NCBI GenBank assembly: GCA_964016885.1
Contig: OZ024743.1
Coordinates: 15,438,001 to 15,502,000 of the forward strand
DNA length: 64,000 nucleotides
Source: Eledone cirrhosa
Lineage: Eukaryota
Reading direction: 5' to 3'
Shown: positions 32,391 to 61,500 of the stretch, in pieces
How positions within the stretch are numbered: the first letter of the stretch is position 1
Layout: every line of letters begins with the position of its first letter
Program-made: the position numbers and the translations under genes
The notes under the pieces: generated by a model
What the model was told of the DNA's origin: nothing
Seen by the model: the letters and a program-made list of their open reading frames with translations, nothing else
The model's database searches: none

Positions 32391-32567
32391 TTGTTTCTAC
32401 TTTTGGCACAGGTCCAGAAATTACCAGTGTATTACTGTTACTTTATTTTATCGACCCCGTAAGGATGAAAGGCAAAGTTAACCTCGGCGGGATTTGAACT
32501 CATAATGGCAAGGACCGTAACTCAATGCGTCAAAGCATGGCGTCCGACCCTCTACCGATACTGCCAA
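32391..32567 (-). mobile_element. SINE family 1 between (AAT)n tracts, next to the Tx1 3' end
   Basis: Reverse complement of the family with (AAT)n on both sides. Confidence 0.88.
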
Positions 32568-32579
32568 AATAATAATAAT

Positions 32580-35500
32580 GCTTTCTTTATTAACCACAAA
32601 GGTTTATACAAAGTAAGACATTAAGGACAATACTGGACAATATAGGACGGTACAAATGGGCATTTCTGAGCGTAAAAAAACAAAAGCAAAGCGTTCCATC
32701 TCGGTCTTCGCTTGACCCAGGACTGCAGCTCCGTCAAGGAGACGAGCTGGGGAAAGACGCATCTGGCAAAAGGCGACCACACCTGATCACCGTTGAGGCA
32801 GAGGTTGAGATGTCGTAGCTAGAGAGCGTGTCATGCCCAGCCATCCACGTAGCGGGTGTTGGCAGCAGATGGACCGCCTGACCATCGGAGCGCGTCCCTT
32901 CCACAATAAGTGAAAGAGCAAACGCTTCATCGCAGATAGGCGAGGCTTAGGACAAGGCACGACGGCCAGGCGGTAGTAGATGCCGGGCGCGATGTACGCA
33001 TTCGCGACCTCCGCTCGACCATTCAGGGATAGCTTCCTCTCTGACCATTTCTGAGTGAGAGAAGCCACCCTGCTCGTCACCTCGTCCAAGATTTTGTCCG
33101 TCTGGAGGTCTGGACTGAACAAGACACCTAGCAATTTAACCTGTACGTCCGTCCAGCGGCCGATGACGTTTGGCGTTTGACACCACTACGGTGACATCGT
33201 CTGCATATGCTGACACGGATATTATGCATCCCAGTTCGCGCGGAACCCCACGAAACGTCTCCAGTTTGTGCAGTATTGGCTCGAGAGTCAATACGTACAA
33301 CTTGGACGAGGGAGTACATCCTTGGCGAACTGAGCGCATGATGTTGAATGGTTCCGAAAGCTGCCCGTTCACTCTCACCACAGCAGATGCTGCTGTGCAT
33401 GGCAGCGATCCAGCCTCTGAAGACGGGCGCAAAGCCAGCCGCACTCAGGACTGCCGCCAGTTAACGATGGGCGACCCTATCGAAAGCTTTCGACTGATCT
33501 AAGTTGATCAACGACTCACCCGTGCCAGGTTCCCTAGCTACCCTCTCCACGATGTATCGCATGAGGTGGAGGTTGTCGTGGATGGATCTGTCTTGGATGG
33601 CGCATGTCTGCGCCTCTCCCACCAGACCACCAACGACAAGCGTCAGCCTCTTTGCTAGCACCTTGTCCAAATCTTGAACTCTGTGTTTAACAGAGATATG
33701 GGCCTGAAATTATCTATGTTATCCCCCTTGTTCGGATCCTATCTCAGCAGTGCCACCACTCCTCGGCTCACACAGCTGGGAATTCTGCCGTTCTGTTGCC
33801 AGTTGCAGTAGACGTCCGCCAAGAGGTCTCCGAACAAGTCTGGCATGGGTACGTAAAGTTCGTAGGGCAACCAGTCATTGCCTCCCGTACTTCAGCGGCT
33901 GTTATCGGCTTTCCTCAACACTCCGCCTCAGTGGCCGAGAGCCGCGGCAGGCCGTCGAGGTAGGCACTAAAGTCCATCCCTCGATCCGGCCCGCCGCTGC
34001 TCCCGAACAGCTGGCGAAGTGTCGCTAAAAAGCTTCACTCGTTTTCCCTGGATCGAGTAGCATGCGCCCGTCGTGCCACGACGCGCCTCCGCCACTTGGG
34101 CCCATTGAACGGTTTCCGTCCCCTTGTGTCTGAGAGCACGCACCCTAGCTCTGAAACGCCTTTGTGCATTGCATTGAAGAATTGGTCGAGGGCCAATTTC
34201 GGCGCAAGTACGCCGGTCGCGAAGCATTTACGAAGCGCCTCGTCTAATTTTCCAACTAGTTTTCCCCCTGCTCTATTTTTCTCTATTGGTAACGCCTTAC
34301 TAAACCTAATGGACTCTATTCTAAGCAAACCACCATTTGTTGTTGACTATGGTCCCCGTCCACGCCCGCATAGTTAGTTCGCTAATCCGGTCTCTGTAGG
34401 CCTGGCGCACTGTTAACGACACGTTTAGCTTCCAGTAGCCGGGTCCCTGTCTATGAAGCCTCTCTAAGTCAACCTCACCATGTAGTCGATTATTTTGAAT
34501 TGTGGACAGCCTATGCTAGACCTATCTATTTCCTTACAAAATACCCTATCTAGATATGATCTGGTTGACCCTATGCGGTTTGTCCATTACCACATTGGCA
34601 CATTAGAGAAATCCGGACGGTACCTGTCAGACAGTTGAAACCGTCTGAGCAGGTTTGCGAGACTTTTACAAACTCCTCCCTTATGCGCTAATCCCACACA
34701 GTCCCAGCGTGCATCTAAGATCCCGTTCCAGTCACCCACTAATACTAAAGAGAGGGACGTTCCAAGAAAGGTCTCCAGACGCCGGAACAAATCAGGCCGC
34801 CCTGCTCCTGTCGGAGCATAGATGGCCACTAGCCTGACAAATTTCCCGTGTCCGCTGGTCACGTCCAGCACCACCAACTTACCTTCTGGGTCCAGGAAGA
34901 TGGCCCATTTAGCGAGATCCAAGCCTCTCTAAAGAAGCACGGCAACTCCTCCCCCCGATCCAGGACGGCTGGGAGATGCGTATACATCGTAGCCGCCGAA
35001 GATCGGTGCGAAGGCTCGTGCTTCGGAGATTCTGGTCTCGCTGATGGCCACCACATCTATGTTTAGTGACCTGAGATCGTTGAGCAGGTGGCCCTGCTTC
35101 TATGACGACCCCAGGTCACGCGCATTTATGCTGCCTATTCTGAGTAAAGTCATGTTGAAAAGGAGTGGAAAAAGTTGGGAAAGACCACTTGTGGAGGAAC
35201 GATGGTCTTTCCTTCCACCCCACGCTTTGTAGCCCCCTCAGGAGAGGATGTCTTTATAAATCCTCCTGGAAAGTTATTGTCGGAAGTCTCCGATATCCTT
35301 GAGGAAATTTAATTTTAGTGTCCTGTATCTTTTCTGAGTGATGCGAGTGATTTGTATGTGTGGGCGTGGTGTGAATTTTCGGGGTGTTGTGTAGTCTTTT
35401 TCTGTGATACTGGTGTTGTGTTGGATGTAGTGTAATAATTGGTTGTAGTTCAAATTTAATTGTTTCTACTTTTGGCACAAGGCCAGCAATTAACCCAGTG

Positions 35501-37468
35501 CATTACTGGTACTTTATTTTAGTTCAAATTGTAGTTCAAATTGTAGTTCAAATTGTAGTTCAAATTGTAGTTCAAATGTAATGCTGTGTAGTGTGTATCG
35601 TTTTGGTTGCTTGTTTTTTTACGTTTGTTGTGTTTGTTTCTGTTTCGCTTGTTGGTGATTTTTGTCGTGTTGGTGTTAATGATGGTGATGATGTTGGTGT
35701 TTGTGGTGATGGAGCTGGTGATGCTGGTGTGTGTGGTGACATAGCTGTCCTAACTTTTTGTTAGTTTGTTTCACCCTGCCTTTTGTTTTTGGAGAGCGAA
35801 GGAAGAGGATTTTTTCTCTTTTGTTTTTTTTCGTTTTTCCAGATACAGTTTCCCACTCCTCTTCGTCGTCACAATCTGTCTCCAGTTGCGGGAGGTCGGG
35901 GAGTGGACAATCCTCCACAGCCGTTGGTTTTGGTTGTGGCGTGGTGGATGGTGGAAGCGCTGGTGCTGATTCTGGCGCGGTGGGTGGTGGTGGTGGTTTT
36001 GCTACTGTTGCTGCTTCAGTTGCTGGGATTGTTGCTGCTACAATTGCCCCTGTTGTTGCTACTACAGTTGTTGCTACCATTTATGCTGCTGGTTTTGATG
36101 GTTGAGTCACTGGGGTGGGCAGGAGATGTAGCCTCAACGTTTTAGCCTGTGGGAAGAAAGACTTTAGGTGGGTTCCATCGCCACAAATGACACACGTACG
36201 CCTTCTACCCTTAACGATTACGGTAAGGTGGATACCGTCATTGAGGTCTATCACCCCTGGACTTGTCTGTATGTGCTTTGGGTCGGCTTGGATCAGGAGC
36301 GCCATCCCAAATCTGGACCAGTTCTCCTGCCTTACTTTTATCACCTCAATTACTTTAGTGTCTGCCTCGATGCCGGTGAGGACGGCAGCCATTAGCCAGG
36401 GAATTTCAATGGCCGGCGGAAGCTGGGTCACCCTGATCCTTACCAGCCTCTGACCACCATAGCTTGGGACGAGTGTGAACTCGTCACATTTTAATGGGGC
36501 CATGGAGTGCAATATGGCTTCCTGTGGGATTCCAAAGAACACGACCACGGTTCTATATTTTTGCCCACGTCTGATGTGGATATTTTGAGCCCACACATGT
36601 CCCAAAGCTTTTTGTATCTGGGACTCGGATGCCCGTTCCACTCGGTGTGTTTTAATGTTTATCGTGCGATATGACACTGTGCATAGGCGCTGATACTCCA
36701 TGGTATTAGAGGGGGGGCTGACCCTGTAACCATATTTTTTATCATTCGCTTGGCGTCAGTCAATTCTTCCTGGCTTACCTCAACCGTTTCATTTTTGTTT
36801 GCCGCTTTAGCAAACGACACATTTGGTTTTGCGCTGATGTTGTTGTTGTTATTGTTATTGTTGCTGTTGTTGTTGTTGTTATTCTTATTTTTAGTTTCAG
36901 TTGTGGTGGTGTCAGTGGCGTTCGGCGTGGAAGAATCCATTTCGATATCACGAGATAATAATTTATTTTTTGTTTCAGTTGTTGCTGTGGTGGTGGTGGT
37001 GGTGGTGGTGGTATCAGTGGTTTTGGTTGTTCTTTTTGACATTGTGGTGATGGGGATGGCGGCTTTAACACCTGTAGATATTGGTATTGGCGGGAAATCC
37101 ATGTCAGTATATGACAAATCTAAATAATTGCCACTGCTATTATTTATATTTCCAGTGTTGGCAACCGTAGCAAGGTTTACAATGGCGGTGGTTGGAGTTT
37201 AGTCTGTTAGAAACGCTGTCAGCAGATTTTGGTAGCTGAAAGCCGTCCATGTTTTATTTCAAAGAAATCTTTTGTTTGATAAATATAAAGTTTAAATTTT
37301 GGGCCCAAGGCGCCAATATTATTGAGTGCCTTTTCAGAAGGCAATATATGTGAACAATATATTATAAACACTAACAAGAAAAATTTTCCATAACTGGCAA
37401 TTTGAAACAACTGAAAACAACAAACATTTGTGGAGCTCACGATAATACGATTTCCTACGCAGGTCGCC
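32580..37468 (-). mobile_element. Tx1-clade LINE copy 1 (intact 5' end, internal deletion in ORF2 3' part), decayed
   Basis: 5' end GGCGACCTGCGTAG next to (TTA)n; ORF1 pieces 37117-35254 with zinc-knuckle-like CVICGDGTH; ORF2 APE (SINARDL, VGDWN) and RT (LDQSKAFD, RQGC, YADD); 3' end CCTTTGTGGTTAATAAAGAAAGC(ATT)n. Confidence 0.88.
35461..35520 (-). mobile_element. SINE family 1 3' fragment inserted in Tx1 ORF1
   Basis: Absent from the paralogous site in Tx1 copy 2 (~47445-47465); flanked by TGTAGTTCAAATTTAAT and tandem repeats of its first 12 bp. Confidence 0.85.
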
Positions 37469-38543
37469 AATAATAATAATAATATCAAAAGTATGAAACA
37501 GATCGACAACAGGATGAGCAACAGCATCAACATAGGCAAAAGAAAAAAATACCATATTTTGAAACGTCTAAGAAACATACTTGATAAATAAATAGACAAA
37601 CTAACTGAAGCATTCGGCTACTTCTAGAACGATAAAACTGTTGCTGTTGGTGGTCGTCGTCGCTTGTTTGTGATTGTATGTTAGTAGTTGGTGATTTCAT
37701 CGTTTAGTGTTTGATATAATCCAATGATATTTGGTTGTCTAGATAACATATAGGAGAACGTATGGAAAATATCAGAGAAGAAGGCACAATGAATCTGAAG
37801 ATACAACGAAAATGTTCAATAGTAAATATGTGTATGCGTGTATGGGTATAAGTATGTATGATGCATATACACACACACACATATACAATGTCTCTCTCTC
37901 TCACTCTCTCTCTCTTTCTCTCTCTCTTATATATATATATATGTATATATATATATAAAAATGCAGAGATAAATAAATAAATAAATAAATATATATAGAG
38001 AGAGAGATAGATAGTGAGAGACGGAGAGGGAGCGAGGGTGGACGAAGACACATGCGTGATTTTGAGACTGGCAAAAATATGCAATTAAGAGAAATTAAGA
38101 GAAGTGTACTACTTTAATGACAACTTTCGTTAAAAAACTTTCTATGAAATAAATTTAATCGATGGATATAATTTGAGATATTCTTAAATTTACTTGAAAG
38201 TCGTATTCATTGGCATATAAATAGATCCAATCTATATGAACACAAGACAGTTTAAAGAACTATAACACTACTTTGAAGATGAAAGAACCACTGTGGCCAG
38301 CGAAGCCTATAGATTCAGCTTGAAATAATACCATTCACATCTGTTGCTTTCTCTATTTTCACACGCTACCTTTGGTTTAATTTAATAGTACAATTTTCTT
38401 TATTTCAACAGAATGCATACAAATAAACACGATTTATCGAAAGAATATATAGTAACAAATGAAATGAAAGTGCAAGAAGAGAGGGACTTTTAAACAAGCG
38501 CCACAATAATGTTGCATTTTTAGGCCAATTAATACACTCACAA

Positions 38544-38563
38544 AATTGCTGTGCATTGATAGC

Positions 38564-38605
<42 letters not shown>

Positions 38606-38733: not shown

Positions 38734-38780
<47 letters not shown>

Positions 38781-39524
38781 TAGATATATGTATGTATATA
38801 TATACGTATATATATATATATGAGTGTGTGTTTGTTCTCCGAACTTTTGCGTCATCCCACACAGATATCTGTTGACCTCACATTAGTGCAGGTCGCTGTT
38901 GTAACGATTGCATAATAGCTCCCAATGTCACAGACATACGATAATATATATTATTATGTTAGTGCACAGGGATCCCTTTTGAAATAATAGCATAAAATGT
39001 TAGTCGAGGGATCAGTTTGTAGAATTGAGCGTCGGACAAAATGAGTAATCAAGCAATGGAATTGATTTTTTACCAACTCTTTTTTTTCTGTCTATCTGTT
39101 TCGCTTCTTTTCTTTCTTTCTCCTCTCTGTCTCTATGTGTGTATATTACTTTCACACTCTGAGATTCAGTTTTGGGGCCCAGATGATAAATGAAATGAAC
39201 CATGGGATGGGTTACATTATTTTGTAGCCATATTAATGAAACCAATAGACGTTTTACAGAAGTAAAATAAACTCTATGGAAAACATATAAATGCTGTACA
39301 CTATTTCATTAAGTAAAAATGCAATGTAAATCTCAATAGAATTTGGAAATAGAAGTCGAGGAAACTAATAAAATATCGATTTCTTACATTGTCTCCCATT
39401 TACTATGTTTCTGGTCTCGTTCCAAAATTAGTAATCATAATTATTATAATCAAGATGATTAAAGCATCTAATACAAATTGGCAGTATATATGCCAATGAT
39501 ATTGTTTTAATACTAATAATAATG

Positions 39525-40520
39525 ATGATTTCTACACAAGGCCAGCAATTTGGGAGGAGGAGAAGTCGATTAAATTGACCACAGTGAGTTACTGGGGCTT
39601 TATTTGATCGACCCCGTTAGGTTGAAAGGCAAAGCTAACCTCGGTGAGATTTGAACTCAGAACATAATGGGGCATAACTCTATGCTGCAAAGCGTGGTAT
39701 CTGACGCTCTAACGATACTGCCAATCTACCGCCATAATAATAATTGTTTCTACTTTTGGCACACGCCCAGCAATTACTCAGTACATTACTGGTACTATAT
39801 TTTATCGATCCCGTAAGGATAAAAGGCAAAGTTAACATTTGAACTCAATCCGTAAAGGGGCGTAATTCTATGCTGGAATGTATGGCGTCCGACTCTCTAC
39901 CGATACTAAATAATAATGATAATTGTTTCTACATTAGGCACAAGGCCAGAAATTTGGGGGTTGAGAAAATCGCTTAAATCGAAACTAGTGTAACTAGTGG
40001 TACTTTATTTCATCGAACTCGTAAAGGTGAAAGGCAAAGTTAAACTTGGCGGGATTTGAACTCAGAACGTAAAGAGGCATACCTCTATATTGCAAAGCAT
40101 GGCGTGTGACCCTCTACCGATACTGCCAATCCACCCCCATAATAATTGTTGCTTCTTTTGGCACAAGGCCAGCAATTATATCAGTGTATTACTGGTACTT
40201 TATTTTTCGACCCCGTAAGGATGAATGGCAAATTTAACCTCGGCGGGATTTGAACTTAGAATGGCAAGGGCCGTATCTCTATACGTCAAAGAATGGTGTC
40301 CGACCCTCCACCGATACTGCACATCCACCGACCTATAATACAAATAATAATCATTGTTTCTATTTTTGGAACAAGGTCAATAATTACCCAGTACATTGCT
40401 GGTACTTTATGTTATCGACCCCGTATGGATGAAAGGCAAAATTAACCTCGGCGGGATTTGAACTCATACGTGGTCGATAAAATAAAGTACCAGTAATGTA
40501 CTGCATAATTGCTGGCCTTA
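39525..40520 (-). mobile_element. Head-to-tail array of five SINE family 1 copies plus one inverted fragment
   Basis: Units at ~39529-39733, 39743-39908, 39921-40138, 40145-40333 and 40352-40466, separated by short (AAT)n; + strand fragment at ~40472-40519. Confidence 0.9.
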
Positions 40521-40534: not shown

Positions 40535-43476
40535 CACCACTCACTTATGTGGAGTGAAGATGAAAAAACAAAGGAATTCCCACAAGAAATCTACTTGGCA
40601 AGATAACATCAATCGCCAAATAAACCTTCTCCGACCTGACATAGAAATTTTAACAAACTATAAAGTAGGTGAACATGTTAAACAAACTAAACTTAGAAAA
40701 TTGAAAAAAAAGTACAGTATAAGATCAACATGTGACATAGACATGCTGATAGAAACAATCAAGCAAAAAGTGTCGGCCAAAGCTGCTCGTATAAGGCGCT
40801 TTGAAAAACGATCTAGATTCTATAAGGACAATAATATGTTCAAAAACAACCAAAGAAACTTCTACAGAAAAATTGGTAAGTCAACAATAACTGCTAAATC
40901 AATACCACCCAAGGAGGAAGTGCAAGAATTCTGGGAAAAGATCTGGGCCGAAGAAAAAGTTCATAACATACATGCCGCATGGATAGACAGACAAATGAAA
41001 GAAACAGCTCACCTTGAAGAACAAACATGGGAAAATATAACAGTTGAACAGCTGCGCTTGGCTCTAAGAAAAACCAGCAAATGGAAATCCCCAGGAAAAG
41101 ACAAAATACAAAACTTTTGGATAAATGCCTTCACAGAGTCTCATGAGCTGTTAGCCCAACTTTACAATGAAATAGTTAAGGAGCCAGAAAAGATACCATC
41201 ATGGCTAGTTAACGGCATTACATTCCTGCTACCGAAGAATGATGAGACAAACAATCCCAAAAATTACAGACCGATAACCTGCTTGACCACAATGTATAAA
41301 ATTTTAACATCAGTCCTAACTGAATACACATATGACCACCTGATAACAAATGACCTATTTCCCATTGAGCAGAAAGGGTGTAAACGAGGCTCATATGGCT
41401 GTAAGGATCAGCTTCTGGTTAACAAAATGATACTGGAAGATTGTCATAATAGACACAAAAATCTATCGATTGCTTGGATAGATTATAAAAAAGCATTTGA
41501 TAGTTTGCCACACAGTTGGATTGAAAAATGTTTAGAGATTTTCAAAATATCCCCCGTTATCAGGAGGTTTTTGTCATTCAGTATGAGGACATGGAGAACG
41601 ACACTCTTTTGAATAGTGAAACAAAATCACTGGAAGCTGGAGAAGTTAACATTACTTGTGGAATTTTTCAGGGTGACTCTTTATCACCGCTTTTATTCTG
41701 CATCGCACTTATACCATTAAGTAAAATGCTCAATGAAACAAAACATGGATATAGAGTCTATGACAAAACCATTAATCACCTGTTCTACATGGATGACCTG
41801 AAACTATTTGCAAAAAATGATGAACAATTGCAAGGGCTATTATCCACTGTGAAGCAGTTCAGTGATGACATTAAAATGGAGTTTGGACTGGATAAATGCG
41901 CCAAAGCAACGTTCACCAGAGGAAAGCTGCTGAAGAGTTCAGACATTAATCTTGATCGGGGGAACGTGATAAGAGAGCTTGATCAAGAACAAACTTACAA
42001 ATATCTAGGTGTTTGTGAAGGAGACGGAATCAAGCACTCGACAATGAGGGAAAGGATAAGGAAGGAATGTTACCGCAGAGTCAGAGCAATCTTAAGAACG
42101 GAATTGAATGCAAGGAATTGGATCGATGCCATAAACACGCTTGCCATACCAGTAGTAACCTACAGTTACAATGTCATCAACTGGTCAAGCACAGAGATCC
42201 GTAGGCTCGATACAAAAATCCGAAAATTCTTAACCATGCACAGAATGCATCACCCTAAGGCAGACATAGATAGAATATATCTCCCTAGGAAAGAAAGAGG
42301 ACGTGGGTTAATCCAGTTAGACATTGCGTTGAAAACTGCAACAATTGGATTATCCACATATCTAAGGGAATCACATGATTGGATGATCAAACTCGTTTTG
42401 AAACACGAAAGCACCAAAAGATCATATTCCATTACAAAAGATGCACAAAGGTACAGTAATGGACTACAAATTTCAGAAGTCCCATTTACTGCTGAAATGG
42501 AAAACACAGAAAAAGCAAAGCAGGTAAAAGTAACTGCAAAGAAAGAACTGCTACAGAAACTGGCTAAGAAATGGCAAGAAAAGCCTCTGTATGGAAAATA
42601 CCCAGAGCGAGCTAACAATCCTGATGTTGACAAAACTTTAACCCATCAGTGGTTGGCATCCTCTGGACTGAAATCGGAGACTGCAGGACTGATTATATCC
42701 GCACAAGATCAGTGTCTGCCAACAAAAAATTACCAAGCCAACATAATAAAAAATGGGCGCAGCCCATTATGCCGTGTATGCAAAAAACAACCAGAGACCA
42801 TTGACCATATATTTTCAATGTGCAGTCCTATAGCTCCAACCGAATACCTAAACAGGCATGACAGAGCTACACAATACATACATTGGATAATGTGTAAGCA
42901 TTTTGACCTGCCCCATCAAAAGAATTGGTGGGAGCATCAACCACCTCCCATACTTGAAAAAGATCACATCTCAATCTTGTGGAACTTTAGCATCCAAACA
43001 GACCGAAAAATAGATGCAAATAGACCTGATATAATATTGAAGGACTTTCAAAGGAGGGTATGCCTGCTAATTGATATGTCTGTTCCAATAGACAAGAATG
43101 TATCTATAAAAACATTTGAAAAATTGAGCAAGTATAAGGACCTGGAGATAGAAATTGGAAAAATGTGGAAATTGAGAATTAAAACAATACCAGTGGTTGT
43201 AGGCGCTCTGGGAATGATACCTAAGGGGTCTAACGACTACTTATCGCAAATCCCAGGAAACCCGCGTATAGGAGAAATACAAAAGATAGTACTAATGGGA
43301 ACTGCCCATATACTAAGGAAGATCCTGTCAATATAAGTACATCACAAGTCTAAACACTAAGGATGCATGTGTGAATATGTGTGTTCTTTCTTGAACATGG
43401 CGGACCTTGTTGTCTCTTGAGGTCACTGGTTGTGACTTGGTGATAACTCGTATAAACATAAAGCAAGATAAATGCA

Positions 43477-43506: not shown

Positions 43507-43507
<1 letters not shown>

Positions 43508-46500
43508 TTTTCTTTATTAACCACAAGGGTTTACATAAAGTAGACATTAAGGACAGTACAGGATAATACAGGACGGGCATTTCTGCGTGTAAAAAAACAG
43601 AGGATGTAATAAAATAACATAGAAAAAATCCCCAATAGGGGGGAGACTTCCGAGGGACATTTGTGGAGAAAGCCCATTAGAAGACCACAGTGACCCTGAC
43701 CACCAAGGCAAGTGCCCTCTCCCAGTTTTCCACCTTTAATGTATTACAGACACATACTCAGAGTAGGCCCATTCACTCGGGCCTTTGTTGCCTCTCTCAC
43801 CCATCTTTCAACAAAATGCTGGGAAGAGAGCTCTTCCCTCTCTACCCTGATTTTCCTTTTCAAATGAAATTTGAAAAAATTAATCAGGGCATCACCAAAG
43901 AGGTAAGTGCTCGTCTTCAGCACTTTCAAAAGTGTCCATTATACTATCTCTTTGCCATGGCCACCAGAGAGATAACAACTGCCTGCCCTTCCCGGCTAAA
44001 GGCAGAGGGCGGGGCAATCCTCACGATGGACTCAGCTGATAGCTGGATCCGTCCTACACGCGACAGCAGGTTTTCGACATAAACCCACAAGTCAGCAATG
44101 CTCGGACACTGGACGAGTGCGTGCAGGACGGTTTCCTCGCCCTGCGCGCATATCGGACATGCCGGGCTGACGGCACCTCCATGCCTGTAGAGTTTATCCC
44201 GAACTGGCAAAGCTCCTCGGTAACACTGCCTGGCCAGGGATTTCTTGAAGTTGTCCATAGGCCCCGGCCCGAAAGTTCTTCCGAAGAGATTGGCTAGTTG
44301 ATTTTCGTCGACACCTATAGTTTCCCCAAGTACGTCGTCGCTCTTCCACTCCACTAATCCTCTATAGAACGCCAAGGTGGAGTTTCCACCGATCACATTG
44401 CCCGATTGGTCGAGGGCTGTAAGCGCCTGAAGACATTCCAGTCTCCGAGCGCTCCCTCTCGGTCTTCGCTTGACCCAGGATTGCAGCTCCGTCAAGGAGA
44501 CGAGCTGGGGAAAGACGCGTTTAGCAAACAGCGACCACACCTGATCACCGTCGAGGAAGAGGTGGAGATGTCGTAGCCGCCCTCATGTCTGCGCATCATC
44601 AGCCACGGCATTCCCAGCCCTCCACGTAGCGGGTGTTGACAGCAGATGGACCACCTGACCATCGGGGCGCGTCCCTTCCACAAAAAGCGAAAGAGCAAAC
44701 GCTCCAGCGCAGTCAGGCGGGGCTTAGGACAAGGTACGACGGTCAGGCGGTAGTAGATGACGGACGCGATATACGCGTTAGCAACCTCTGCTCGACCTTT
44801 CAGGGATAGCTTCCTCTCTGCCCATTTCTGGGTGAGAGAAGCCACCCTGCTCGTCACCTCGTCCCAGTTTTTGTCCGACTGGAGATCCGGACCGAACCAG
44901 ACCCCGAGCAATTTAACTGGTCCGTCCGGCCAGCGCCCGACGACGCTGTTGGACGGCATGGACCTGCCTCTCCAGGTGCCGAGCTAGAGGCCCACTGACT
45001 TTTCCTGGTTGATCATTGCTCCTGTCACCGCTTCGTATTCTCTTAGTGTAGTGCCGATCGCCTCGATGTGTTTGGCGTTCGACACCACTACGGTGACATC
45101 GTCCGCATTGCTGACACGGATCTTCCGCATCCTAGTTCGCGCGGGATCCCCCCTCAACGTTTCCAGTTTGTGCAGTAATGGCTCGAGAGTCAATACGTAC
45201 ACGTACAAGATGGACGAGAGGGGACATCCTTGGCGGACCGAGCGCATGATGTTGAACGGTTCCGAAAGGTGACCGTTCACTCTCACCACAGAGCAGCTGT
45301 GCATGGCAGCGATCCAGCCTCTGAAGACGGGCCCAAAGCCAGCCGCCCTCAGGACTGCCGCTAGGTAACGGTGGTCGACGCTATCGAAAGCTTTCGACTG
45401 ATCTAAATTGATCAAGGACCCACCCGTGCCAGGTTCCTTAGATACCCTCTTTACGATGTATCGCATGAGGTGTAGGTTGTCGTGGATGCATCTGTAGGGT
45501 ATGGCGCATGTCTGCGCCTCTCCCACCAGACCACCAACGACAAGCGCCAACCTCTTTGCTAGCACCTTGGCCAAAATCTTGAACTCTGTGTTTAGCAGAG
45601 TTATGGGCCTAAAATTATCTATGTTATCCCCCTTGTTCGGATCCTTTCTCAGCAGCGCCACAGCCTCGGCGCACATAGCTGGGAATTTTCCGGTTCTGTT
45701 GCCAGTTGCAGTAGACGACCGCCAAGAGGCCCCCGAACAAGTCTGGCATCTGTACGTAAAGTTCATAGGGCAGACCATCCAAACCACGCGATTTACCCCT
45801 TGTGCAGGTAGTCATTGCCTCCCGTACTTCAGCGGCTGTTATCGGCTTTGCGCAACACTCCACCTCAGTGGCCGAGAGCCGAGGCAGTCCGTCGAGGTAG
45901 ACACTAAAGCCCATCCCTTTATCCGGCCCGCCGCTGCCCCCGAACAACTGAGCGAAGTGTCGCTGAAAAGCTTTACACATTTGCCCGGGATCGAGCTACA
46001 TGCGCCTGTCGTGGTCCACCAAAGAGCGGATCGTGGTTTTGTTGCCACGATGCGCCTCCGCCACGCGGGCCCATTGAAAGGCTTTCGTCCCCTCGTGTCT
46101 GAGAGCACGCACTCTAGCTCTGACAACGCAGCCTTCGTGCTTTGCATAGAAGAATTAGTCAAGGGCCAATTTCGCCGCCAACACGTCGGTCGCGATGCCT
46201 TTGCTAAGCGCCTCGTCTAATTTTCTAACTAATTCTCCCTCTGCTCTATTTTTTCTCTATTGCTAAAGCCTTACTAAACCTAATGGACTCCTATTCTAAT
46301 TGCGCTTTTCAGAGCAAACCACCACTTGTTGGTGACGATGGACCCCGTCAAAGCCCGTTTAACTAGTTCGCTAATCCGGTCTCTGTAGGCCTTGCGCGCT
46401 GGTAAGGACGCGTTTAGCTTCCAGGAGCCGGGACCTCGTGTATGAAGCCTATGTAAGTCAAGTACACAGGTCACGAATTTGTGGTCCGTGTAGCTGACTA

Positions 46501-49265: not shown

Positions 49266-49266
<1 letters not shown>

Positions 49267-49906
49267 CTTTCTTTATTAACCACAAGGGTTTACATTAAGT
49301 AGACATTAAGGAGAGTACAGGGCAATACAGGACGGTACAAATGGGCATTTCTTCGTGTAAAAAAACAGAGGATGTAATAAAAATAACAATGAAAAATTCC
49401 CCAATAGGGAGGAGACTTCGGAGGGACATTTGTGGAGAAAGACCATTAAAAGGCCACAGTGACCCTAACCACCAGGGCAAATGCCCTCTCCCAGTTTTCC
49501 ACCTTTAATTTATAGACACATACTCAGAGTATTCTTGCTTCTCTTACCCATATTTCAACAAAATGCTGGGAAGAGAGCACTTCCCTCTCCATTCTGATTT
49601 TCCTTTTCAAATGAAATTTGAAAAAGTCAATCAGGGCATTACCGAATAGGTAAGTGCTCATCTTCAGCACTTTCAAACGTGTCCACCATACTATCTCTTT
49701 CGCCATGGCCACCAGACAGATAAAAACAGCCTGCCCCTCCCGGCTAAAGGAAGAGGGCGGGGCAATCCTCACGATGGACTCAGCTGATAGCCGGATCCGT
49801 CCTACACGCGACAGCAGGTGTTCGACATAAACCCACAAGTCAGCAATTCTTGGACACTGGACGAGTGCGTGCAAGGCGGTTTCGTCGCCCTGCGCGCATA
49901 TCGGAC

Positions 49907-49988: not shown

Positions 49989-52778
49989 TAAACTTAGAAA
50001 ATTGAAAAAAAAGTACAGTATAAGATCAACATGTGACATAGACATGCTGATAGAAACAATCAAGCAAAAAGTGTCGGCCAAAGCTGCTCGTATAAGGCGC
50101 TTTGAAAAACGATCTAGATTCTATAAGGACAATAATATGTTCAAAAACAACCAAAGAAACTTCTACAGAAAAATTGGTAAGTCAACAATAACTGCTAAAT
50201 CAATACCACCCAAGGAGGAAGTGCAAGAATTCTGGGAAAAGATCTGGGCCGAAGAAAAAGTTCATAACATACATGCCGCATGGATAGACAGACAAATGAA
50301 AGAAACAGCTCACCTTGAAGAACAAACATGGGAAAATATAACAGTTGAACAGCTGCGCTTGGCTCTAAGAAAAACCAGCAAATGGAAATCCCCAGGAAAA
50401 GACAAAATACAAAACTTTTGGATAAATGCCTTCACAGAGTCTCATGAGCTGTTAGCCCAACTTTACAATGAAATAGTTAAGGAGCCAGAAAAGATACCAT
50501 CATGGCTAGTTAACGGCATTACATTCCTGCTACCGAAGAATGATGAGACAAACAATCCCAAAAATTACAGACCGATAACCTGCTTGACCACAATGTATAA
50601 AATTTTAACATCAGTCCTAACTGAATACACATATGACCACCTGATAACAAATGACCTATTTCCCATTGAGCAGAAAGGGTGTAAACGAGGCTCATATGGC
50701 TGTAAGGATCAGCTTCTGGTTAACAAAATGATACTGGAAGATTGTCATAATAGACACAAAAATCTATCGATTGCTTGGATAGATTATAAAAAAGCATTTG
50801 ATAGTTTGCCACACAGTTGGATTGAAAAATGTTTAGAGATTTTCAAAATATCCCCCGTTGTCAGGAGGTTTTTGTCATTCAGTATGAGGACATGGAGAAC
50901 GACACTCTTTTGAATAGTGAAACAAAATCACTGGAAGCTGGAGAAGTTAACATTACTTGTGGAATTTTTCAGGGTGACTCTTTATCACCGCTTTTATTCT
51001 GCATCGCACTTATACCATTAAGTAAAATGCTCAATGAAACAAAACATGGATATAGAGTCTATGACAAAACCATTAATCACCTGTTCTACATGGATGACCT
51101 GAAACTATTTGCAAAAAATGATGAACAATTGCAAGGGCTATTATCCACTGTGAAGCAGTTCAGTGATGACATTAAAATGGAGTTTGGACTGGATAAATGC
51201 GCCAAAGCAACGTTCACCAGAGGAAAGCTGCTGAAGAGTTCAGACATTAATCTTGATCGGGGGAACGTGATAAGAGAGCTTGATCAAGAACAAACTTACA
51301 AATATCTAGGTGTTTGTGAAGGAGACGGAATCAAGCACTCGACAATGAGGGAAAGGATAAGGAAGGAATGTTACCGCAGAGTCAGAGCAATCTTAAGAAC
51401 GGAATTGAATGCAAGGAATAGGATCGATGCCATAAACACGCTTGCCATACCAGTAGTAACCTACAGTTACAATGTCATCAACTGGTCAAGCACAGAGATC
51501 CGTAGGCTCGATACAAAAATCCGAAAATTCTTAACCATGCACAGAATGCATCACCCTAAGGCAGACATAGATAGAATATATCTCCCTAGGAAAGAAAGAG
51601 GACGTGGGTTAATCCAGTTAGACATTGCGTTGAAAACTGCAACAATTGGATTATCCACATATCTAAGGGAATCACATGATTGGATGATCAAACTCGTTTT
51701 GAAACACGAAAGCACCAAAAGATCATATTCCATTACAAAAGATGCACAAAGATACAGTAATGGACTACAAATTTCAGAAGTCCCATTTACTACTGAAATG
51801 GAAAACACAGAAAAAGCAAAGCAGGTAAAAGTAACTGCAAAGAAAGAACTGCTACAGAAACTGGCTAAGAAATGGCAAGAAAAGCCTCTGTATGGAAAAT
51901 ACCCAGAGCGAGCTAACAATCCTGATGTTGACAAAACTTTAACCCATCAGTGGTTGGCATCCTCTGGACTGAAATCGGAGATTGAAGGACTGATTATATC
52001 CGCACAAGATCAGTGTCTGCCAACAAAAAATTACCAAGCTAACATAATAAAAAATGGGTGCAGCCCATTATGCCGTGTATGCAAAAAACAACCAGAGACC
52101 ATTGACCATATAATTTCAATGTGCAGTCCTATAGCTCCAACCGAATACCTAAACAGGCATGACAGAGCTGCAAAATACATACATTGGATAATGTGTAAGC
52201 ATTTTGACCTGCCCCATCAAAAGAATTGGTGGGAGCATCAACCACCTCCCATACTTGAAAAAGATCACATCTCAATCTTGTGGAACTTTAGCATCCAAAC
52301 AGACCGAAAAATAGATGCAAATAGACCTGATATAATATTGAAGGACTTTCAAAGGAGGGTATGCCTGCTAATTGATATGTCTGTTCCAATAGACAAGAAT
52401 GTATCTATAAAAACATTTGAAAAATTGAGCAAGTATAAAGACCTGGAGATAGAAATTGGAAAAATGTGGAAATTGAGAACTAAAACAATACCAGTGGTTG
52501 TAGGCGCTCTGGGAATGATACCTAAGGGGTCTAACGACTACTTATCGCAAATCCCAGGAAACCCGCGTATAGGAGAAATACAAAAGATAGTACTAATGGG
52601 AACTGCCCATATACTAAGGAAGATCCTGTCAATATAAGTACATCACAAGTCTAAACACTAAGGATGCATGTGTGAATATGTATGTTCTTTCTTGAACATG
52701 GCGGACCTTGTTGTCTCTTGAGGTCACTGGTTGTGACTTGGTGATAACTCGTATAAACATAAAGCAAGATAAATGCAA
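49989..52778 (+). mobile_element. R4/Dong family A copy 2 (5'-truncated), nearly identical to copy 1
   Basis: ORFs 50002-50913 and 50829-52637 differ from copy 1 at only a few residues; same frameshift; (AAT)n tail. Confidence 0.92.
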
Positions 52779-54136: not shown

Positions 54137-57100
54137 GCCACACAAAACCACGTGGAGTGACGAAACTACCGGAGACGAGTAATTCACCGGTGGTTATGTA
54201 ACCATACATTCGCCAATCCTCGATAAGAGTGTTTAAATGTCGAATCTAAACAGTTCGAATAACGGTGAAATGGAGACTAGAATGTCATGTGACAGACTCT
54301 CACCCAACAGGTGCTCCCTGGCTCAGCAGCAGGGACCTGGCTGTCAACCAAATACTGCTGGTATCGGAGGAAGAAGAAGAAGGAAAGGGACCAGAACCAA
54401 CTGGACGAAAGAATTGAATAGAACTGTTATACAATGTTACCTGAAGAGTAACCCCAAGGAGAAAGGCTATAGGAAAAGAATGCATAACATCTGGAACGAT
54501 ATTGGTCCATTTAAATTAGATGAACAAAAACTGGCCGGGCAGGCTCGGGTAATAAGAACTAATGGGGGGATAAGTGAGCTGGAACTGGAGGAACTGAGCA
54601 GAGAGATTAGGTTGGAGATGGAGAGTGGAGTATGCCAGGCAAACGAGCCAGTGGGAAATGAAGGCGAAGAGGTCGAGAGAACGGAGGAACCACCCGAAGC
54701 AGACAATGATCTGAATGCTGAGATAAATAATACCTGGAACAGAGATACGGCCACTGAGGAGATGAATGCTGACGGGCTAGGACAAGATTTGGTTGATATC
54801 CTAAACTTAGTGGTAGATGAATTGAACAATGATAGTGGGAGACCTATGAACCTAAGATTTGTAGACAGGAAAAAGTTAAAAGAAACAACAGCTAAGGTAA
54901 AGAAAGTCATCCCATACCTTGAGGCGAGGAGCCTTCACCAGTGCAACAATATCCTCAAAGCAACAGCAAATACGGTGAGGAAACTACTTGGTATAAAAGC
55001 GAGAGCAAACAGCATAAACAAGAAAGAGCAGAGCCTTGGTGGAAGAAACTACTGAGTGGTCAAATCAGGGAAATGAGAAATGACATTGGAAAGCTTGAGT
55101 CCCTACTGAATGGGACACTAAAAAACATAGACACTAAAAATAGACTGGAAATAAAGTACAAAACTAGGAGGAAAAAGCTAAATATTATCATAGAGGAACT
55201 GAAGCAACGCATTGTAGCAAAGAGTACAAAAATCAGGCGATACGAGAACAGAGTCAGTCAGTATAGACAGAACCGCATGTTCGACAACAACCAGAAGATG
55301 CTGTTTGGACAGCTTGAAGGGAACGAAAGAGGCAACGACTTGATCACTGAGGCGGAACAAACTAAAACATTCTGGAGAGGAATATGGGAGCAGGATGTTA
55401 AACATAATGACCAGGCAGTGTGGATTGAGACAGTACAGAAGGAGATCAGTGAACAGGCACACCAACAAACTGATTTGAGTATCACAGTTGAAACTCTTAA
55501 GGGGCAGGCCAAAAAACTAACCAACTGGAAGTCACCTGGCCCAGATGGTGTGCAGGAGTATTGGATTTAAAACATAACATCCCTCCACCCGAAACTGACA
55601 ACCATGTTCAATGACTGCTTGATGTCAGGTGAGGTACCAGAGTGGTTGACAAAAGGTACCACAGTTCTGATAATGAAAGACCGAATCAAGGGTAATGATG
55701 TTACCAATTATAGACCTATCACATGTCTGTCCGTAATGTGGAAACTGTTGACAAGCATTGTGTCTGAGGAAATCTACCATCACCTCCACACAAACAACTT
55801 GTTACCGGACGAACAGAAAGGATGCCGAAAGAAGTCACGTGGTACAAAGGACCAGTTACTTATTGATAAGATGGTAATGAGGAATTGCAAGAGGAGACAC
55901 ACTGGTCTTGCCATGGGATGGATAGACTACAAAAAGGTATTTGACATGGTGCCTCATTCTTGGATCACCAAAAGCCTGGAGATCTTCAAGGTGGCTGATA
56001 ACATCAGACAGTTGTTGGGCAAAAGTATAAAGTCCTGGGAAACAGAGTTAACATCAACTGGAGAATCCTTGGGAAGCGTGAAGATCAAGAGAGGTATCTT
56101 CCAGGGAGATAGTCTGTCCCCTCTGTTGTTTGTCCTTGCCCTGATGCCCCTGACCAGTGTACTGGGAAAAGTGAGAGCAGGATACAGGTTGGGAATGGGA
56201 GGGCTTACCATCAATCACCTCCTCTTCATGGACGATCTTAAGCTCTTCGGGAAGAGTGAGAAGGAGTTGGATGTGCTTGTTGACACTGCCCGTATTTTCA
56301 GCAATGATATATGTATGCAATTTGGTATTAGTAAGTGTGGAATCATTGTGATGAGGAGGGGTAAGTTGAGCAGAAGTAACGGAATCCAGATACCAAAAGG
56401 TGAGATGATAAAGGAAATTGACTCTGAGGAAGGATACAAGTATTTGAGCGTTCTGGAGGCTGATGACATCAAGAACAAAAAAATGAAGGAATTGATAAGA
56501 ACTGAATACATTACGAGAGTAAGGAGCGTATTAAAGTCACATCTGAACAGTAGGAATGTCATAAGTGCAGTAAATTCCCGGGCTGTGTCTATTATTAGGT
56601 ACAGTGCGGGAATTCTGAGATGGAATGTTGCTGAACAAAAAGAAATGGATAGGAAGACAAGGAAGCTATTGACTATCTACAATATGTTCCACAAGAGGAG
56701 TGATGTCGATAGACTCTACTTAAGGAGATATGAAGGTGGAAGAGGTCTTATCAGCATAGAGGACTGTGTTCAGATGGAGAAAAACAACCTACACAAATAC
56801 GTGACTGATAGTAAGGAGCCAATGCTCAGAACTGTACTGAAGGAGGGGACAATAGGCCAGGGGATGTCCAAGGAGGAAATAACATCAAGGAGAAAGAGCA
56901 GCCTTCTGGAAAAATCCCTTCATAGTACCTTCTTTGAGAAAACTGAATTTAGAGATCCACAGACATGGAACTGGTTGAAAAGAGAAGGACATAAAAAGGG
57001 TACAGAAGGAATGTTAATGGCTGCGCAGGAGCAGGCCCTCAAAACGAAGTGGTTGAAACACCACATTTACACGGAGGAGGCTAGCCCACTGTGCAGGATC

Positions 57101-57740
57101 TGTGGAGAGAGAGAGGAGACTGTTGCTCACATTGTATCCGAGTGTAAACACCTAGCCCAGACTCACTATAAGGGCTGGAGACATGATGTGATGGGCAGGG
57201 TGATCCACTGCCACCTATGCAAAGTAAACAATTTACCACATTCTGAGAAGTGGTATGAGCATAAGCCAGAGGTGGTGATAGAAAACGATCAGGTGAAGGT
57301 GCTGTGGGATTTTAGGATACAGACGGACAAGAAACTGGAACACAATAGACCTGACCTGGTGGTTTTGGACAAAGAAAAAAGATCGTGCCTGATTGTAGAT
57401 GTGGCCTGCCCATTCGACACGAGAGTGCAAGAGAAGGAGAGGGAGAAAATTAACCGATACCAGGACTTAAAGTGGGAGGTAAAAAGGATTTGGAACTGCC
57501 ATGAAGTCAAAGTGATCCCGATTGTCATAGGCGCACTAGGGACTATCTCAAAAAGTTTCCAGGGATGGTTAAATAAAATTGGCCCCGCCACGATTTTTGG
57601 AACGCTTCAAAAGGCATGCTTGCTGGAAACAGCAAGAACCTTCCGATACGTCCTGAATATCTGATGCTGCAGGTAGTGGCTTGATATTCATTTCAACAAA
57701 CTTTCCAGTTAACTAACATCAATGACTGAGATTCAAAGAG
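54137..57740 (+). mobile_element. R4/Dong family B, apparently full length (~3.6 kb)
   Basis: Starts after TAATAAT; ORF 54237-57664 with one frameshift (~55030) and one stop (55568). N-terminal WTKELNRTVIQCY...YRKRMHNIW domain, YRPITCL, GIFQGDSLS, FMDD, CRIC...ETVAHI..C, RHD, RPDL...DVACP..EKINRY; (AAT)n tail. Confidence 0.92.
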
Positions 57741-57768
57741 TAATAACAATAATAATAATAATAATAGT

Positions 57769-58046
57769 AATTGTTTCTACTGTTGGCACAAGGCCAGCAA
57801 TTATATCAGTGTATTACTGGTTTCTACAATAGACACAAGGCCAGAAATTATCCCAGTGTATTACTCGTACGTTATTTTATCGACCACATTAGGATGAAAT
57901 GCAAAGTTAACCTCGACGGGATTTGAACTCAGAATATTAATACTAATAATTGTTTCTACTTTAGGCACAAGGCCAGCAATTACCAGTGCATTACTGGTAC
58001 TTTATTTTATCGACCCCGTAAGGATGAAAGGCAAAGTCAACCTCAA
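57769..58046 (-). mobile_element. Three stacked SINE family 1 3' fragments in the Dong B tail
   Basis: Three TTTCTAC...CACAAGGCCAG units starting at ~57770, 57820 and 57950. Confidence 0.85.
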
Positions 58047-58064
58047 TACTAATAACAATAATAA

Positions 58065-58496
58065 TTTAGGATACAGACGGACAAGAAATTAGAACACAAC
58101 AGACCTGACCTAGTGGTTTTTAACAAGGAAAAAAAATCGTGCATGATTGTAGATGGAACCTGACCCTTTGACACGAGAGTTCAAGAGAAGGAGAGGGAGA
58201 AAATTAACCGATACTAGGATTTAAAATGTGACTTAAAAAGGATTTGGAACTGCCATGAGATCAAGGTCGTCCCGATTGTCATAGGAACTCTAAGTAATAT
58301 CTCAAGGATGTTTCAAGGATGGTTAAAGAAGATTAGTCCAGCCCCGTTTTTTTGGAACACTTAAAAAGGCATGGTTGCTGGGAACATCAAGAACCCTCCG
58401 ATACGTCCTAAATATCTGAGGCTGCAGGTAGCGGCTTGATAATCATTTCAACAAACTTTCCAGTTAAATAACATCAATGACTGAGACACAAAGAAC
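58065..58496 (+). mobile_element. R4/Dong family B 3' fragment
   Basis: Diverged copy of 57311-57740 (TTTAGGATACAGACGGACAAG...ACATCAATGACTGAGA). Confidence 0.88.
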
Positions 58497-58502
58497 AATA
58501 AT

Positions 58503-61500
58503 GGTTTCTTTATTGGCCACAAGGGCTAACTCGAAGAAAAACATTAGAGACAGCACAGAACAGTACAGGACGATACAAAGTGGGTTTTGGTCGTGTAAAC
58601 AGGTTATAACAAAATTGGTCTAGAATTCAAAATAATTCAAATAACAAAAATTGCCCAAAAAGGTGGAAACCTCCGAGGGTCACTCGTGGCGAAAACCACA
58701 CAAAAAGGCCACGGCTGCCCTGACGACCAGGGCTAGAACCCTCTCTCAGTTTTCCCACTCCTCAGTCTACAAGCACATACTCAGAGCGAGGCTGTTCACT
58801 CGGACCAGACTCGCCACTTTCACCCACCTTTCAACAAACTTACTAGAAGACAGCACTTGCCTCTCCACCCTGACTTTCCTCTTCAAGTGAAACTTGAAAA
58901 AATTAATCAGGGATTGGCCGCAGAGGAAAATGTCCGTCTTCAACCCTTTCAGCCTTGTGCACCACACAATCTCTTTTGCCATGGCCACCTGGCAGATGAA
59001 AACTGTCTGCCCTTCCTCCTCTTTAGAGGGACTACCTGCACAACTGACTTAGTCGATAACTGGATCCGTCCTACACACGACAGCAGCTGTTCGACATAGC
59101 TCCACAAGTCAGCAATCCTCGGGCACTGAATGAGTGCGTGCACAACGGTTTCGTCACCCTGCACGCATCTCGAACAGGCTCGGCTGACAGCACCTCCTTG
59201 CCTGTAGAGCTTATCCCGAACCGGCAACGCTCCCCGGTAGCACTGCCAGGCCAGGGATTTCTGGAAGTTGTCCATAGGCCCCGGTCTGAAAGTTCTCTTG
59301 AAGAGAGCGAACAGCTGATCGTCTTCGACGCCCAGGGTCTCTCCGAGAACGTCGTCCCACTTTCCATCCACTAGCCCTCTATAGAACGCAAAGGTGGATG
59401 TTTCACCGATACTAGTGCCCAACTGGTAGAGCGCTTGGAGACATGCAAGCTTCCAAGCGCTGTCCCTCGGTATTTTCCTGATCATGGACTGCAGCTCCGT
59501 CAAGGAGACGAGCCGGGGAAAAGCGGGTCTGGCAAACGGCGACCACACTTGTTCACCGTCAAGGAAGCACCAGAGATGTCGCAGCCTGAGCGCATGTTTG
59601 CGCATCATGAGCCACGGCAAGCCTAGTCCTCCACGCAACGGGTGTTGACAGCAAATGGATCGTCTGACCATGGGAGCACGTCCCTTCCACAAAAAGCGGA
59701 AGAGAAGGCGCTCCATTTTGGTCAAAGTTGGGCAGCGCACGGTACGACGGTCAGGCGGTAGCAGATGACGGACGCTATGTACGCATTCGCCACCTCCTCC
59801 CGAACTTTCAGAGACAGCCTCTCTTCGGCCCATTTCTGGGTGATAGAGGCTACCCTGCTCGTCTCCTTGCTCCAGTTTTTCTCCATCTGTCGGTCCGGAG
59901 TGAACCAGACCCTGAGCAATTTAACCGGTCCTTCCGTCCAGTGACTCACGACGCTGTCGGATGGCATTTCAGGTGCCGAGTTGCAAGCCCACCAACTTTT
60001 CCTGGTTTATCTTTGCTCCTGTCACCGCTTCGTATTCCTTGAGAGCGGTACCGAGCATCTGGACATGTTTGGTGCTCGACACCACCACGCTTAGGTCGTC
60101 GGTGTATGTTGACACGGATCTCCCGCAACCCAGTTCGCGTAGGACCTCCCTCATCGTCTCCAATTTGTGCAGTAACGGCTCGATGGCTAGTACGTACAAC
60201 AGGGACGAGAGGGGAACACCTGGCGGACCGAGCGCATGAGGCTGAAAGGCTGCGACAGGTGACCATCCACCCTCACAATCGAGCAGATGTCGCTGTGCAT
60301 CGCAGCGATCCAGCCCATTAATACGGACCCGAAGCTGGCCGCCTCGATGACCGCAGCCAGGTGCCGATGGTTAACCATATCAAATGCTTTAGATTGATCC
60401 AATTTGATCAGGCCCCACCTCTGCCAGGTTCCTTATCCACTCTCTCTATGATGTATCGCATGAGATGGAGGTTGTCATAGATGGATCTGTCCGGAATTGC
60501 GCATATCTGCGCCTCTCCCACGAGATCACCGACGACAAGCGCCAATCTCTTTGCTAACAACTTGGCCAAAATCTTAAACTCTGTGATTAGCAGAGTTATG
60601 GGCCTGAAGTGGTCTATAACGTGCCCCTTGTCCGGATATTTTCTCAGCAGCGCCACCGCTCCCCGGCTCATAAAACTGGGAATGCTCCCGTTCTGCTGCC
60701 AATTGCAGTAGACATCTGCCAAAAGGTCGCCGAACAAGTGTGGCATATATGCATAAAGCTCGTAGAGCAGACCAGCCAAACCTGGCGATTTACCCCTCGT
60801 ACAGTCAGACAACGCTTCCCGTATTTCACCTGATCATCGGCTTTTCGCAACACTGCCCTCCGGTCGTCGAGGGCCGCGGCAGTCCATCGAGGTATGCACC
60901 GAAGTCCATACTCCGACCCGGCCTGCCGCCGCTCCCAAACAATTGAGCAAAGTGCTGTTGAAAAGCCGCACACATCTGCTCGTGTTCGAGCAACATGTGC
61001 CCGTTTTGATCAGGCAAAGACCGAATTGTGGCGTGTTGCCACATCGCCCCTCCACCACCCGGGCCCATTGAATGGCTTTCGTCCCCTCGTGTCTTAGAGC
61101 ACACGCTCTAGATCTCACAACGCGGCCTTCATGCATTGCGTTGAAGAATTGGTTGAGTGCCAATCTCGCCGCATGCACGTCGGTTGCGATGCCTGTCCTA
61201 AACGCCTCTTCTAGCTATCTAACTAACTCTCCCTCTACTCTATTTTCCTCTATCACTACTCCTTTGCTAAACCTTATCGATTCTACACTAATAACCCTTT
61301 TCAGGCTAAACCACCACCTGTTGTTGACGATCGCACCCGTCAACGGACGCTTAACTAATTTGCTAATCCGGTCTTTGTAAGCTTTGCGCGCCGAGAACGA
61401 CTCGTTCAGCTTCCAGTAGCCGGACCTTTGCCTATGGAGTCCATCTAAGTCAACTTCACAGATCACAAATTTGTGGTCCGTGTAGTCGACTACTTTAAAT

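Follow-up and report, generated by a model that had tools for sequence, protein, structure and literature searches.

Several pairs of a short and a long interspersed nuclear element (SINE and LINE) have been described that end in a similar stem-loop; statements on them, here and below, refer to the accessible portions of the cited papers. The window analysed here is a 64,000-nucleotide (nt) stretch of the genome of the octopod Eledone cirrhosa (3.0 Gb; contig OZ024743.1, positions 15,438,001 to 15,502,000), and feature coordinates refer to this whole stretch. It contains copies of an abundant SINE with a transfer RNA (tRNA)-like head and several Tx1-type LINEs, which end in a similar short hairpin. 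A sequence-only reading of this DNA had proposed that the Tx1 elements mobilise the SINE. The tail, the target motif and its strand, the L1-like duplication length and the overlapping ages support this proposal, and on this indirect evidence Tx1 is probably the SINE carrier. It seems somewhat likely, too, that Tx1 carries the SINE with the hairpin as a handle.

The eel UnaL2/UnaSINE pair and the zebrafish elements ZfL2-1 and ZfL2-2 also have a short 3' stem-loop and a terminal repeat, and the loop is kept while the stem varies (PMC4176376, PMC3747384). In the zebrafish L2 elements, the loop gives specificity and the stems can be swapped (PMC4176376). The present pair differs from these L2 pairs in that it belongs to the L1/Tx1 group, has three firm stem pairs and long target duplications, and is known from sequence alone. 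In maize and sorghum (ZmSINE2-3 with LINE1-1_ZM) and in Chlamydomonas (SINEX-3/L1-1_CR), an L1-clade LINE and a tRNA-derived SINE share a 3' hairpin, with compensatory stem changes and a conserved loop and 3' flank, much as proposed here (PMC3472496, PMC3747384). However, the present host is an animal, the LINE is a target-specific Tx1, the common part is about 23 nt instead of 50-80, and the end is ATT instead of poly(A) or (T). In the crocodilian SINEU/Tx1-Mar pair, a Tx1 was likewise proposed as the SINE carrier by target and age, and the preference of the SINE is weaker than that of the LINE; that link was drawn from targets, ages and 5' heads, not from the 3' tail, and SINEU has a small nuclear RNA head and a low copy number (PMC4494074). 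Kibi, Koshi and the crocodilian microsatellite-specific Tx1 elements resemble the present LINEs in being specific for a microsatellite. The present elements target (ATT)n and (TATC)n instead, and the accessible text of PMC4494074 describes no SINE partner for Kibi or Koshi.

The accessible part of a 2013 table of SINE/LINE pairs (PMC3747384) lists no Tx1 pair, and its L1-clade pairs come from plants and a green alga (see also PMC3472496). The main SINE types named for Octopus are tRNA-Deu and tRNA-CORE; the LINEs are L1-Tx1, Dong-R4, CR1, and RTE, and the LINE types of the present genome match them (PMC8967140, PMC13282606). In the accessible text, the partner LINE of the tRNA-Deu SINEs is not named in these two papers, and no partner of octopus SINEs is named in PMC4758252 and PMC5804259. 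No published report of the present SINE/Tx1 pair was found in the literature searched, a scope that leaves aside Repbase, Dfam, SINEBase, subscription papers, and supplements.

Common 3' tail of the SINE and the Tx1-type LINEs

The SINE family has a short and a long subtype (about 190 and 220 nt), and its copies are short, non-coding, dispersed, and flanked by target duplications. In twelve random 100-kb blocks (1.2 Mb), 168 SINE tails were found, 132 short-type and 36 long-type. Extrapolated from these blocks, the genome would hold about 4 x 10^5 copies, which would place the SINE among the most abundant octopus repeats. The head contains A- and B-box-like motifs by sequence reading; the putative central domain is presumably of the Deu/Nin type. 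The head of one copy, other than that at 32392-32567, aligned to 16 genomic tRNA-like loci with z-scores of 1.1-4.1, and no tRNA match was obtained on the window SINE copies with ARAGORN or Rfam. The loci L371 and L373-L381 are near-identical tRNA-like copies with many anticodons, and are likely a tRNA-derived repeat and not true isoacceptors.

The LINEs contain a reverse transcriptase (RT) whose best solved structure is human L1 ORF2p (E 4e-17, versus 1e-10 for R2). Among named proteins, ORF2 is most closely related to one of the octopod Argonauta hians (69%). Intact open reading frames (ORFs), ORF1 (485 amino acids, aa) and ORF2 (1,139 aa), occur in the Tx1 copy L362 elsewhere in the genome. 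Relatives of the L362 proteins carry an APE endonuclease, the RT, and a C-terminal zinc domain, and these domains together with the two ORFs place the element in the L1/Tx1 group. The site-specific APE LINE clades named in PMC6007223 are only Tx1 and R1; because target-specific APE LINEs are known only in these two, the present LINEs are probably Tx1, and the protein hits included no named Tx1 element. When metagenomes were scanned for the Tx1 tail, 9 loci were returned, but this element could be recognised in none of them; no related loci were found in the viral and prokaryote collections.

The stem-loop strings quoted in the sequence-only reading for the SINE and for Tx1 copies 1-4 are all present on the minus strand, and they are family features and not copy quirks. 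For the tail of copy 4, the best 30 relatives all end alike, a few with single changes. The tail of copies 2 and 3 has 9,501 exact genome-wide matches; a third tail family, with a GGCC/GGCC stem, has 1,811. Four further tails built in this way belong to Tx1 copies that lie in (TATC)n repeats. All the Tx1 3' ends have C-C before the loop and G-G after it. Intact 5' ends of one Tx1 type number 2,260 genome-wide. The 5' and 3' ends are mixed between families, with at least four 5' untranslated region (UTR) types and three ATT-type tails (L361-L367). One 1-kb, internally deleted Tx1 (L257, about 22832240-22833267 of the contig designated C1) has 5' and 3' ends from different families and is possibly a non-autonomous derivative. 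A truncated Tx1 with an inverted 5' segment (L321) resembles the products of L1 twin priming.

The last 23 bases of the two SINE subtypes were compared with LINE 3' ends in the best of three registers; one copy each represents the four TATC-type tails and the RTE and R4 ends, and the remaining rows are majority strings. The SINE shares 13-17/23 positions with the seven Tx1 3' ends, and 5-10/23 with the ends of seven LINEs of other kinds (two CR1-like, two RTE, and three R4). No CR1, RTE, or R4 end tested beats Tx1. Among 5,687 genomic stretches upstream of ATTAT, the mean is about 6/23, and 2-12 reach the Tx1 values, the top scorers possibly being unmasked SINE ends. The common tail is thus beyond the background, and the tail likeness noted in the sequence-only reading is confirmed. 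Chance resemblance, that is, a short motif in an AT-rich genome chosen after the fact, is very improbable: the stretch is short and several families and registers were compared, but few background stretches reach such scores, 7/7 Tx1 ends and 0/7 other LINE ends pass, and the target motif and duplication type agree independently.

Some features of the tail count against the Tx1 link. The common stretch is only about 23 bases, and the similarity ends a few bases upstream of the stem. No Tx1 3' end with the GGC/GCC stem of the SINE was found genome-wide. A pattern joining the SINE stem with the Tx1 spacer gave 5 genome-wide matches, all of which are SINE copies, and 303 scattered variants.

A rare or extinct LINE, outside the sample, might be the true partner, with the SINE/Tx1 likeness coming from a common ancestor tail or a common host factor. 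This explanation is quite unlikely. In its favour, stem pair 2 of the SINE is unlike that of all Tx1 3' ends, the random sample covers 1.2 Mb of 3.0 Gb, and genome searches give best matches only. However, the SINE tail behind non-SINE letters, searched with a pattern that covers only about a quarter of the possible upstream sequences, gave 246 scattered genome-wide matches and no LINE was seen. A SINE body lay upstream in 20 of the 30 matches examined, and the remaining 10 had no common upstream sequence by eye. When the sequences in front of ATT runs and of 5,135 ATTAT sites were clustered, no further LINE-like end emerged.

In one full-length SINE (L326), the hairpin marks the junction to a terminal Tx1 tail; this chimera could be explained either by template switching or by insertion of a truncated Tx1. 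A SINE subfamily with the exact Tx1 tail was sought, and one chimeric copy was obtained by the first pattern, zero by the second, and none in viral contigs. The SINE tail and the Tx1-type terminal 40 nt were both matched in sequencing-run contigs of the organisms designated C and G, the first comparison ending before the stem columns and the second omitting the ATT-run part.

Pairing and folding of the hairpin

Compensatory covariation of the stem had been put forward together with a structured 3' signal. Pairing was tabulated in 11 natural tails (among them two SINE subtypes, Tx1 3' ends, and a 5' UTR hairpin), which are related rows from which the structure itself was chosen. The closing C-G pair is present in all 11 tails. 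Pair 2 is C-G in seven tails, G-C in three (two SINE subtypes and one 5' UTR), and unpaired in one; pair 3 is G-C in eight, A-U in two, and G-U in one. The core three pairs thus contain two independent double changes, and they are intact in 118-122 of the 132 short-type SINE copies. The paired cells amount to 86%, versus 12-57% in slid controls and 70% in shuffles. Such covariation is slight, and it argues only weakly for a structured signal.

Other results weigh against such a signal. Pair 4 is unpaired in 5/11 tails; it is A.C in Tx1 copy 4, and T.T in 33/36 long-type and 34/132 short-type SINE copies. Three pairs with a double change were also reached in 131/500 shuffles. No compensatory change was found within the SINE family (132 short and 36 long tails), only decay. 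In full-length SINE sequences, the predicted median probability of the closing pair is 0.05 (84 short) and 0.15 (16 long). Forcing the hairpin would cost about 1.9 (short) or 1.3 (long) kcal/mol, versus 0 for three Tx1 families. None of the tails folds better than its own shuffles (z -0.2 to -1.4). These predictions suggest that the hairpin is mostly unformed in the full-length SINE RNA.

Tx1 might instead copy the SINE through primary sequence and AUU-target pairing, so that the hairpin need not form. This is unlikely, although the hairpin is disfavoured most in the younger, more abundant subtype, and most of the tail similarity comes from conserved positions, namely the loop, the closing pair, the A-rich spacer, and GAAA. 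It would also agree with this reading that the hairpin has a homologue with a TTTT loop in two other Tx1 5' UTR types. However, pairs 2 and 3 have each changed on both sides and are still paired, and a protein could afford the small cost of the hairpin. Recognition of the hairpin by Tx1 is favoured here.

The sequence-only reading left out that the SINE stem is found exactly in a Tx1 5' UTR hairpin, and in no Tx1 3' end. The hairpin of type I 5' UTRs, GGGC-CTTGT-GCCC, lies shortly upstream of ORF1, with about 150 nt between it and the 5' end; of all strings compared, it matches the SINE tail most closely (18/23). The exact 11-base stem-loop of the SINE occurs in 22/30 full-length type I copies; seven have a CTTGA loop and one is damaged. 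In each 5' UTR type examined, the hairpin lies 35-60 nt upstream of the ORF1 ATG (8 full-length Tx1 regions). The window copies have the loops CTTGG (copy 1) and CTTGA (copy 2). Types III and IV are represented by six copies; their homologous hairpin forms a 12-pair inverted repeat, and 5/6 copies carry a TTTT loop there. The CUUGU loop is therefore not general at the Tx1 5' end. A speculative and rather doubtful extension is that the Tx1 lineage marks both RNA ends with a CUUGU hairpin and that the SINE took the 5' UTR version, not the 3' tail. The spread of the SINE over short ATTAT sites would then show that microsatellite specificity is set by the length of the AUU tail pairing with the target, and not by the endonuclease.

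Targets, duplications, and other candidate carriers

The SINE had been described as microsatellite-targeted and followed by (ATT)n, and only part of this description can be kept. ATT does follow the SINE, usually as one or two units, which are the start of the target duplication. At most two units are present in 146/168 ends, and at least four in 12/168. Direct repeats were scored with one mismatch allowed from 12 bases, and up to two terminal SINE bases may be counted in. Among 103 full-length SINE copies, 55 are flanked by a direct repeat of at least 8 bases and 39 by one of at least 14, versus 15 and 2 of 306 shuffled pairings. The duplications are mostly 13-20 bases long; reported lengths are 7-18 bp for the L1 clade and 7-15 bp for RTE (PMC6007223). 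ATTAT starts the 3' flank in 49 of the 55 copies with a direct repeat. Since the duplication starts at ATTAT, the "(ATT)n" of the SINE is mostly target, and since 146/168 ends have at most two units, the SINE is directed to short ATTAT(T) sites and is not microsatellite-specific.

The Tx1 elements are target-specific, as all 30 full-length 5' ends examined lie behind at least seven ATT units (single mismatches counted through). Tx1 3' ends were found in 17/20 fetched partner stretches, and in 17/17 they were followed by ATT arrays. Tx1 and the SINE use ATT on the same strand, while R4/Dong elements have the opposite polarity. At least four ATT units follow 30/34 Tx1-B, 31/51 Tx1-A, 18/35 Tx1-G, and 26/50 CR1 ends, in sets drawn largely from searches and not from random blocks. 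The (TATC)n-targeting Tx1 families share the hairpin, yet the SINE is without TATC targets, a further point missing from the sequence-only reading: none of 168 SINE ends lies at the TATC repeat of the sister families (522 such sites versus 6,881 ATTAT sites). Several of these families stack in tandem in (TATC)n (blocks B2, B3, B5, and B6; L004).

Several of the target and age results do not favour Tx1. The target breadth is unlike, as seen from 12/168 SINE ends and 30/34 Tx1-B ends with at least four units. Truncated Tx1 copies have a direct repeat of at least 8 bases in 5/20 cases, all inside ATT runs, so that no value for the Tx1 duplication length can be obtained. SINEs in the same orientation lie behind the ATT tails of three Tx1 families (19/51, 5/34, and 8/35) and also of CR1 (5/50), with one in the opposite orientation in all; this placement is explained by the target, and no particular partner is indicated by it. 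The median divergence from consensus is 5.5% for the short and 10.9% for the long SINE subtype, and the ages of the Tx1 and CR1 families are about 2-14% and about 1-14%. The SINE and Tx1 ages overlap, and CR1 overlaps too, so that age does not discriminate between partners.

A young CR1 family might be considered as the mobiliser, as CR1 or L2 elements serve Deu/Nin-type SINEs with such tails in other animals (PMC3747384). It has a sense-strand (ATT)n end, many open frames of 945 aa, and overlapping ages. On the other hand, its tail similarity of 7/23 is at background, its hairpin differs from that of the SINE, and none of 13 truncated copies has a duplication of at least 9 bases, versus direct repeats in 55/103 SINE copies. 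CR1 as carrier is accordingly very improbable and largely refuted.

Other candidates were rejected. A second CR1-like family has a TGGC...GCCA stem by eye, but it reaches 8/23 and ends in another repeat. RTE elements end in (ATG)n. R4/Dong elements end in (AAT)n, on the strand opposite to Tx1 and the SINE. Together with RTE LINEs, whose long 3' tail with terminal (ATG)n it has in common, a short repeat (block B5, about 8,000-8,500; block B4, about 96,500) forms a second, more ordinary SINE-like/LINE pair.

Window organisation and proposed mobilisation

The region at 32.4-61.6 kb of the window is a nest in which ATT/AAT runs connect four minus-strand Tx1-type copies, three R4/Dong-type copies and a fragment on the plus strand, and roughly a dozen SINE pieces. 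The plus-strand LINEs are those that we take to be R4/Dong-type from their C-terminal motifs. The intact SINE hairpin TGGC-CTTGT-GCCA is found on the minus strand at, for example, 35473-35485, 40159-40171, and 57784-57796. The features are as follows.

32392-32567, minus: SINE copy of the short subtype (about 190 nt; tRNA-like A/B boxes, central domain, tail) with a damaged stem, immediately following the ATT tail of Tx1 copy 1
32580-37468, minus: Tx1-type LINE copy 1; 5' end intact and preceded by an ATT run, ORF1 and ORF2 broken, internal deletion before the last ~100 nt
32592-32604, minus: 3' hairpin of Tx1 copy 1, AACC-TTTGT-GGTT
35458-35520, minus: SINE 3' fragment nested in Tx1 copy 1, with its hairpin intact
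37301-37313, minus: 5' UTR hairpin of Tx1 copy 1, GCGC-CTTGG-GCCC, about 60 nt upstream of the ORF1 ATG
39505-40520, mostly minus: SINE cluster of about seven copies and fragments, short and long subtypes
40535-43476, plus: R4/Dong-type LINE ending in (AAT)n, with polarity opposite to Tx1 and the SINE
43507-49223, minus: Tx1-type LINE copy 2, near full length, frameshifted, with ATT arrays on both sides
43519-43531, minus: 3' hairpin of Tx1 copy 2, AACC-CTTGT-GGTT
49060-49072, minus: 5' UTR hairpin of Tx1 copy 2, GAGC-CTTGA-GCCC
49266-49906, minus: Tx1-type LINE copy 3, 5'-truncated; 3' hairpin AACC-CTTGT-GGTT at 49278-49290
49992-52777, plus: second R4/Dong-type copy, ending in (AAT)n
54237-57740 (5' boundary approximate), plus: second R4/Dong-type family, ending in (AAT)n; a further member is present as a 3' fragment at 58065-58498
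57772-58044, minus: three tandem SINE 3' parts; intact hairpins at 57784-57796 and about 57963-57975
58503-61572, minus: Tx1-type LINE copy 4, of the second tail family, 5'-truncated; 3' hairpin AGCC-CTTGT-GGCC at 58515-58527

The R4/Dong copies at 40535-43476 and 49992-52777 are 99.5% identical over 2,818 nt, have a common frameshift, and are 9.3 kb apart. Both adjoin a Tx1 3' end, and they may be recent insertions or a local duplication. Elsewhere, one R4-type family ends by (ATAC)n on the opposite strand, which mirrors the ATT/AAT pairing of Tx1 and Dong. Outside the nest, the disrupted ORFs at 14509-16944, in which DUF4371 and a zinc finger are present, are probably a DNA transposon remnant, and a (TTC)n array of 170 units lies at 29493-30002.

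The mobilisation of the SINE by Tx1 might proceed as follows. RNA polymerase III would transcribe the SINE from its A and B boxes and run a few bases into the flank (AUUAU...). By analogy to zebrafish L2, the Tx1 ORF2 protein would bind in trans the loop and stem of the predicted three-pair CUUGU hairpin near the RNA 3' end. The Tx1 endonuclease may then nick the strand opposite ATTAT(T), and the short AUU end would pair with the nick, so that reverse transcription would begin immediately after GAAAC(A/C); these steps, too, follow the analogy to zebrafish L2. Second-strand cleavage 13-20 bases away would generate the duplication. The SINE RNA, with one or two AUU units, would be directed to short sites, and the Tx1 RNA, read out of an array, would carry many units.

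If this proposal is true, a carrier could be named for a repeat that ranks among the most abundant in octopus. Tail-dependent (stringent) recognition would be extended to an animal member of the L1/Tx1 group. The pair would also bear on whether the poly(A) dependence of L1 is derived, which is an open question in PMC3472496 and PMC4176376. These elements might further serve as a natural test of the source of Tx1 target specificity, as the same hairpin occurs with ATT or TATC targets, and the SINE uses ATT only, and more loosely.

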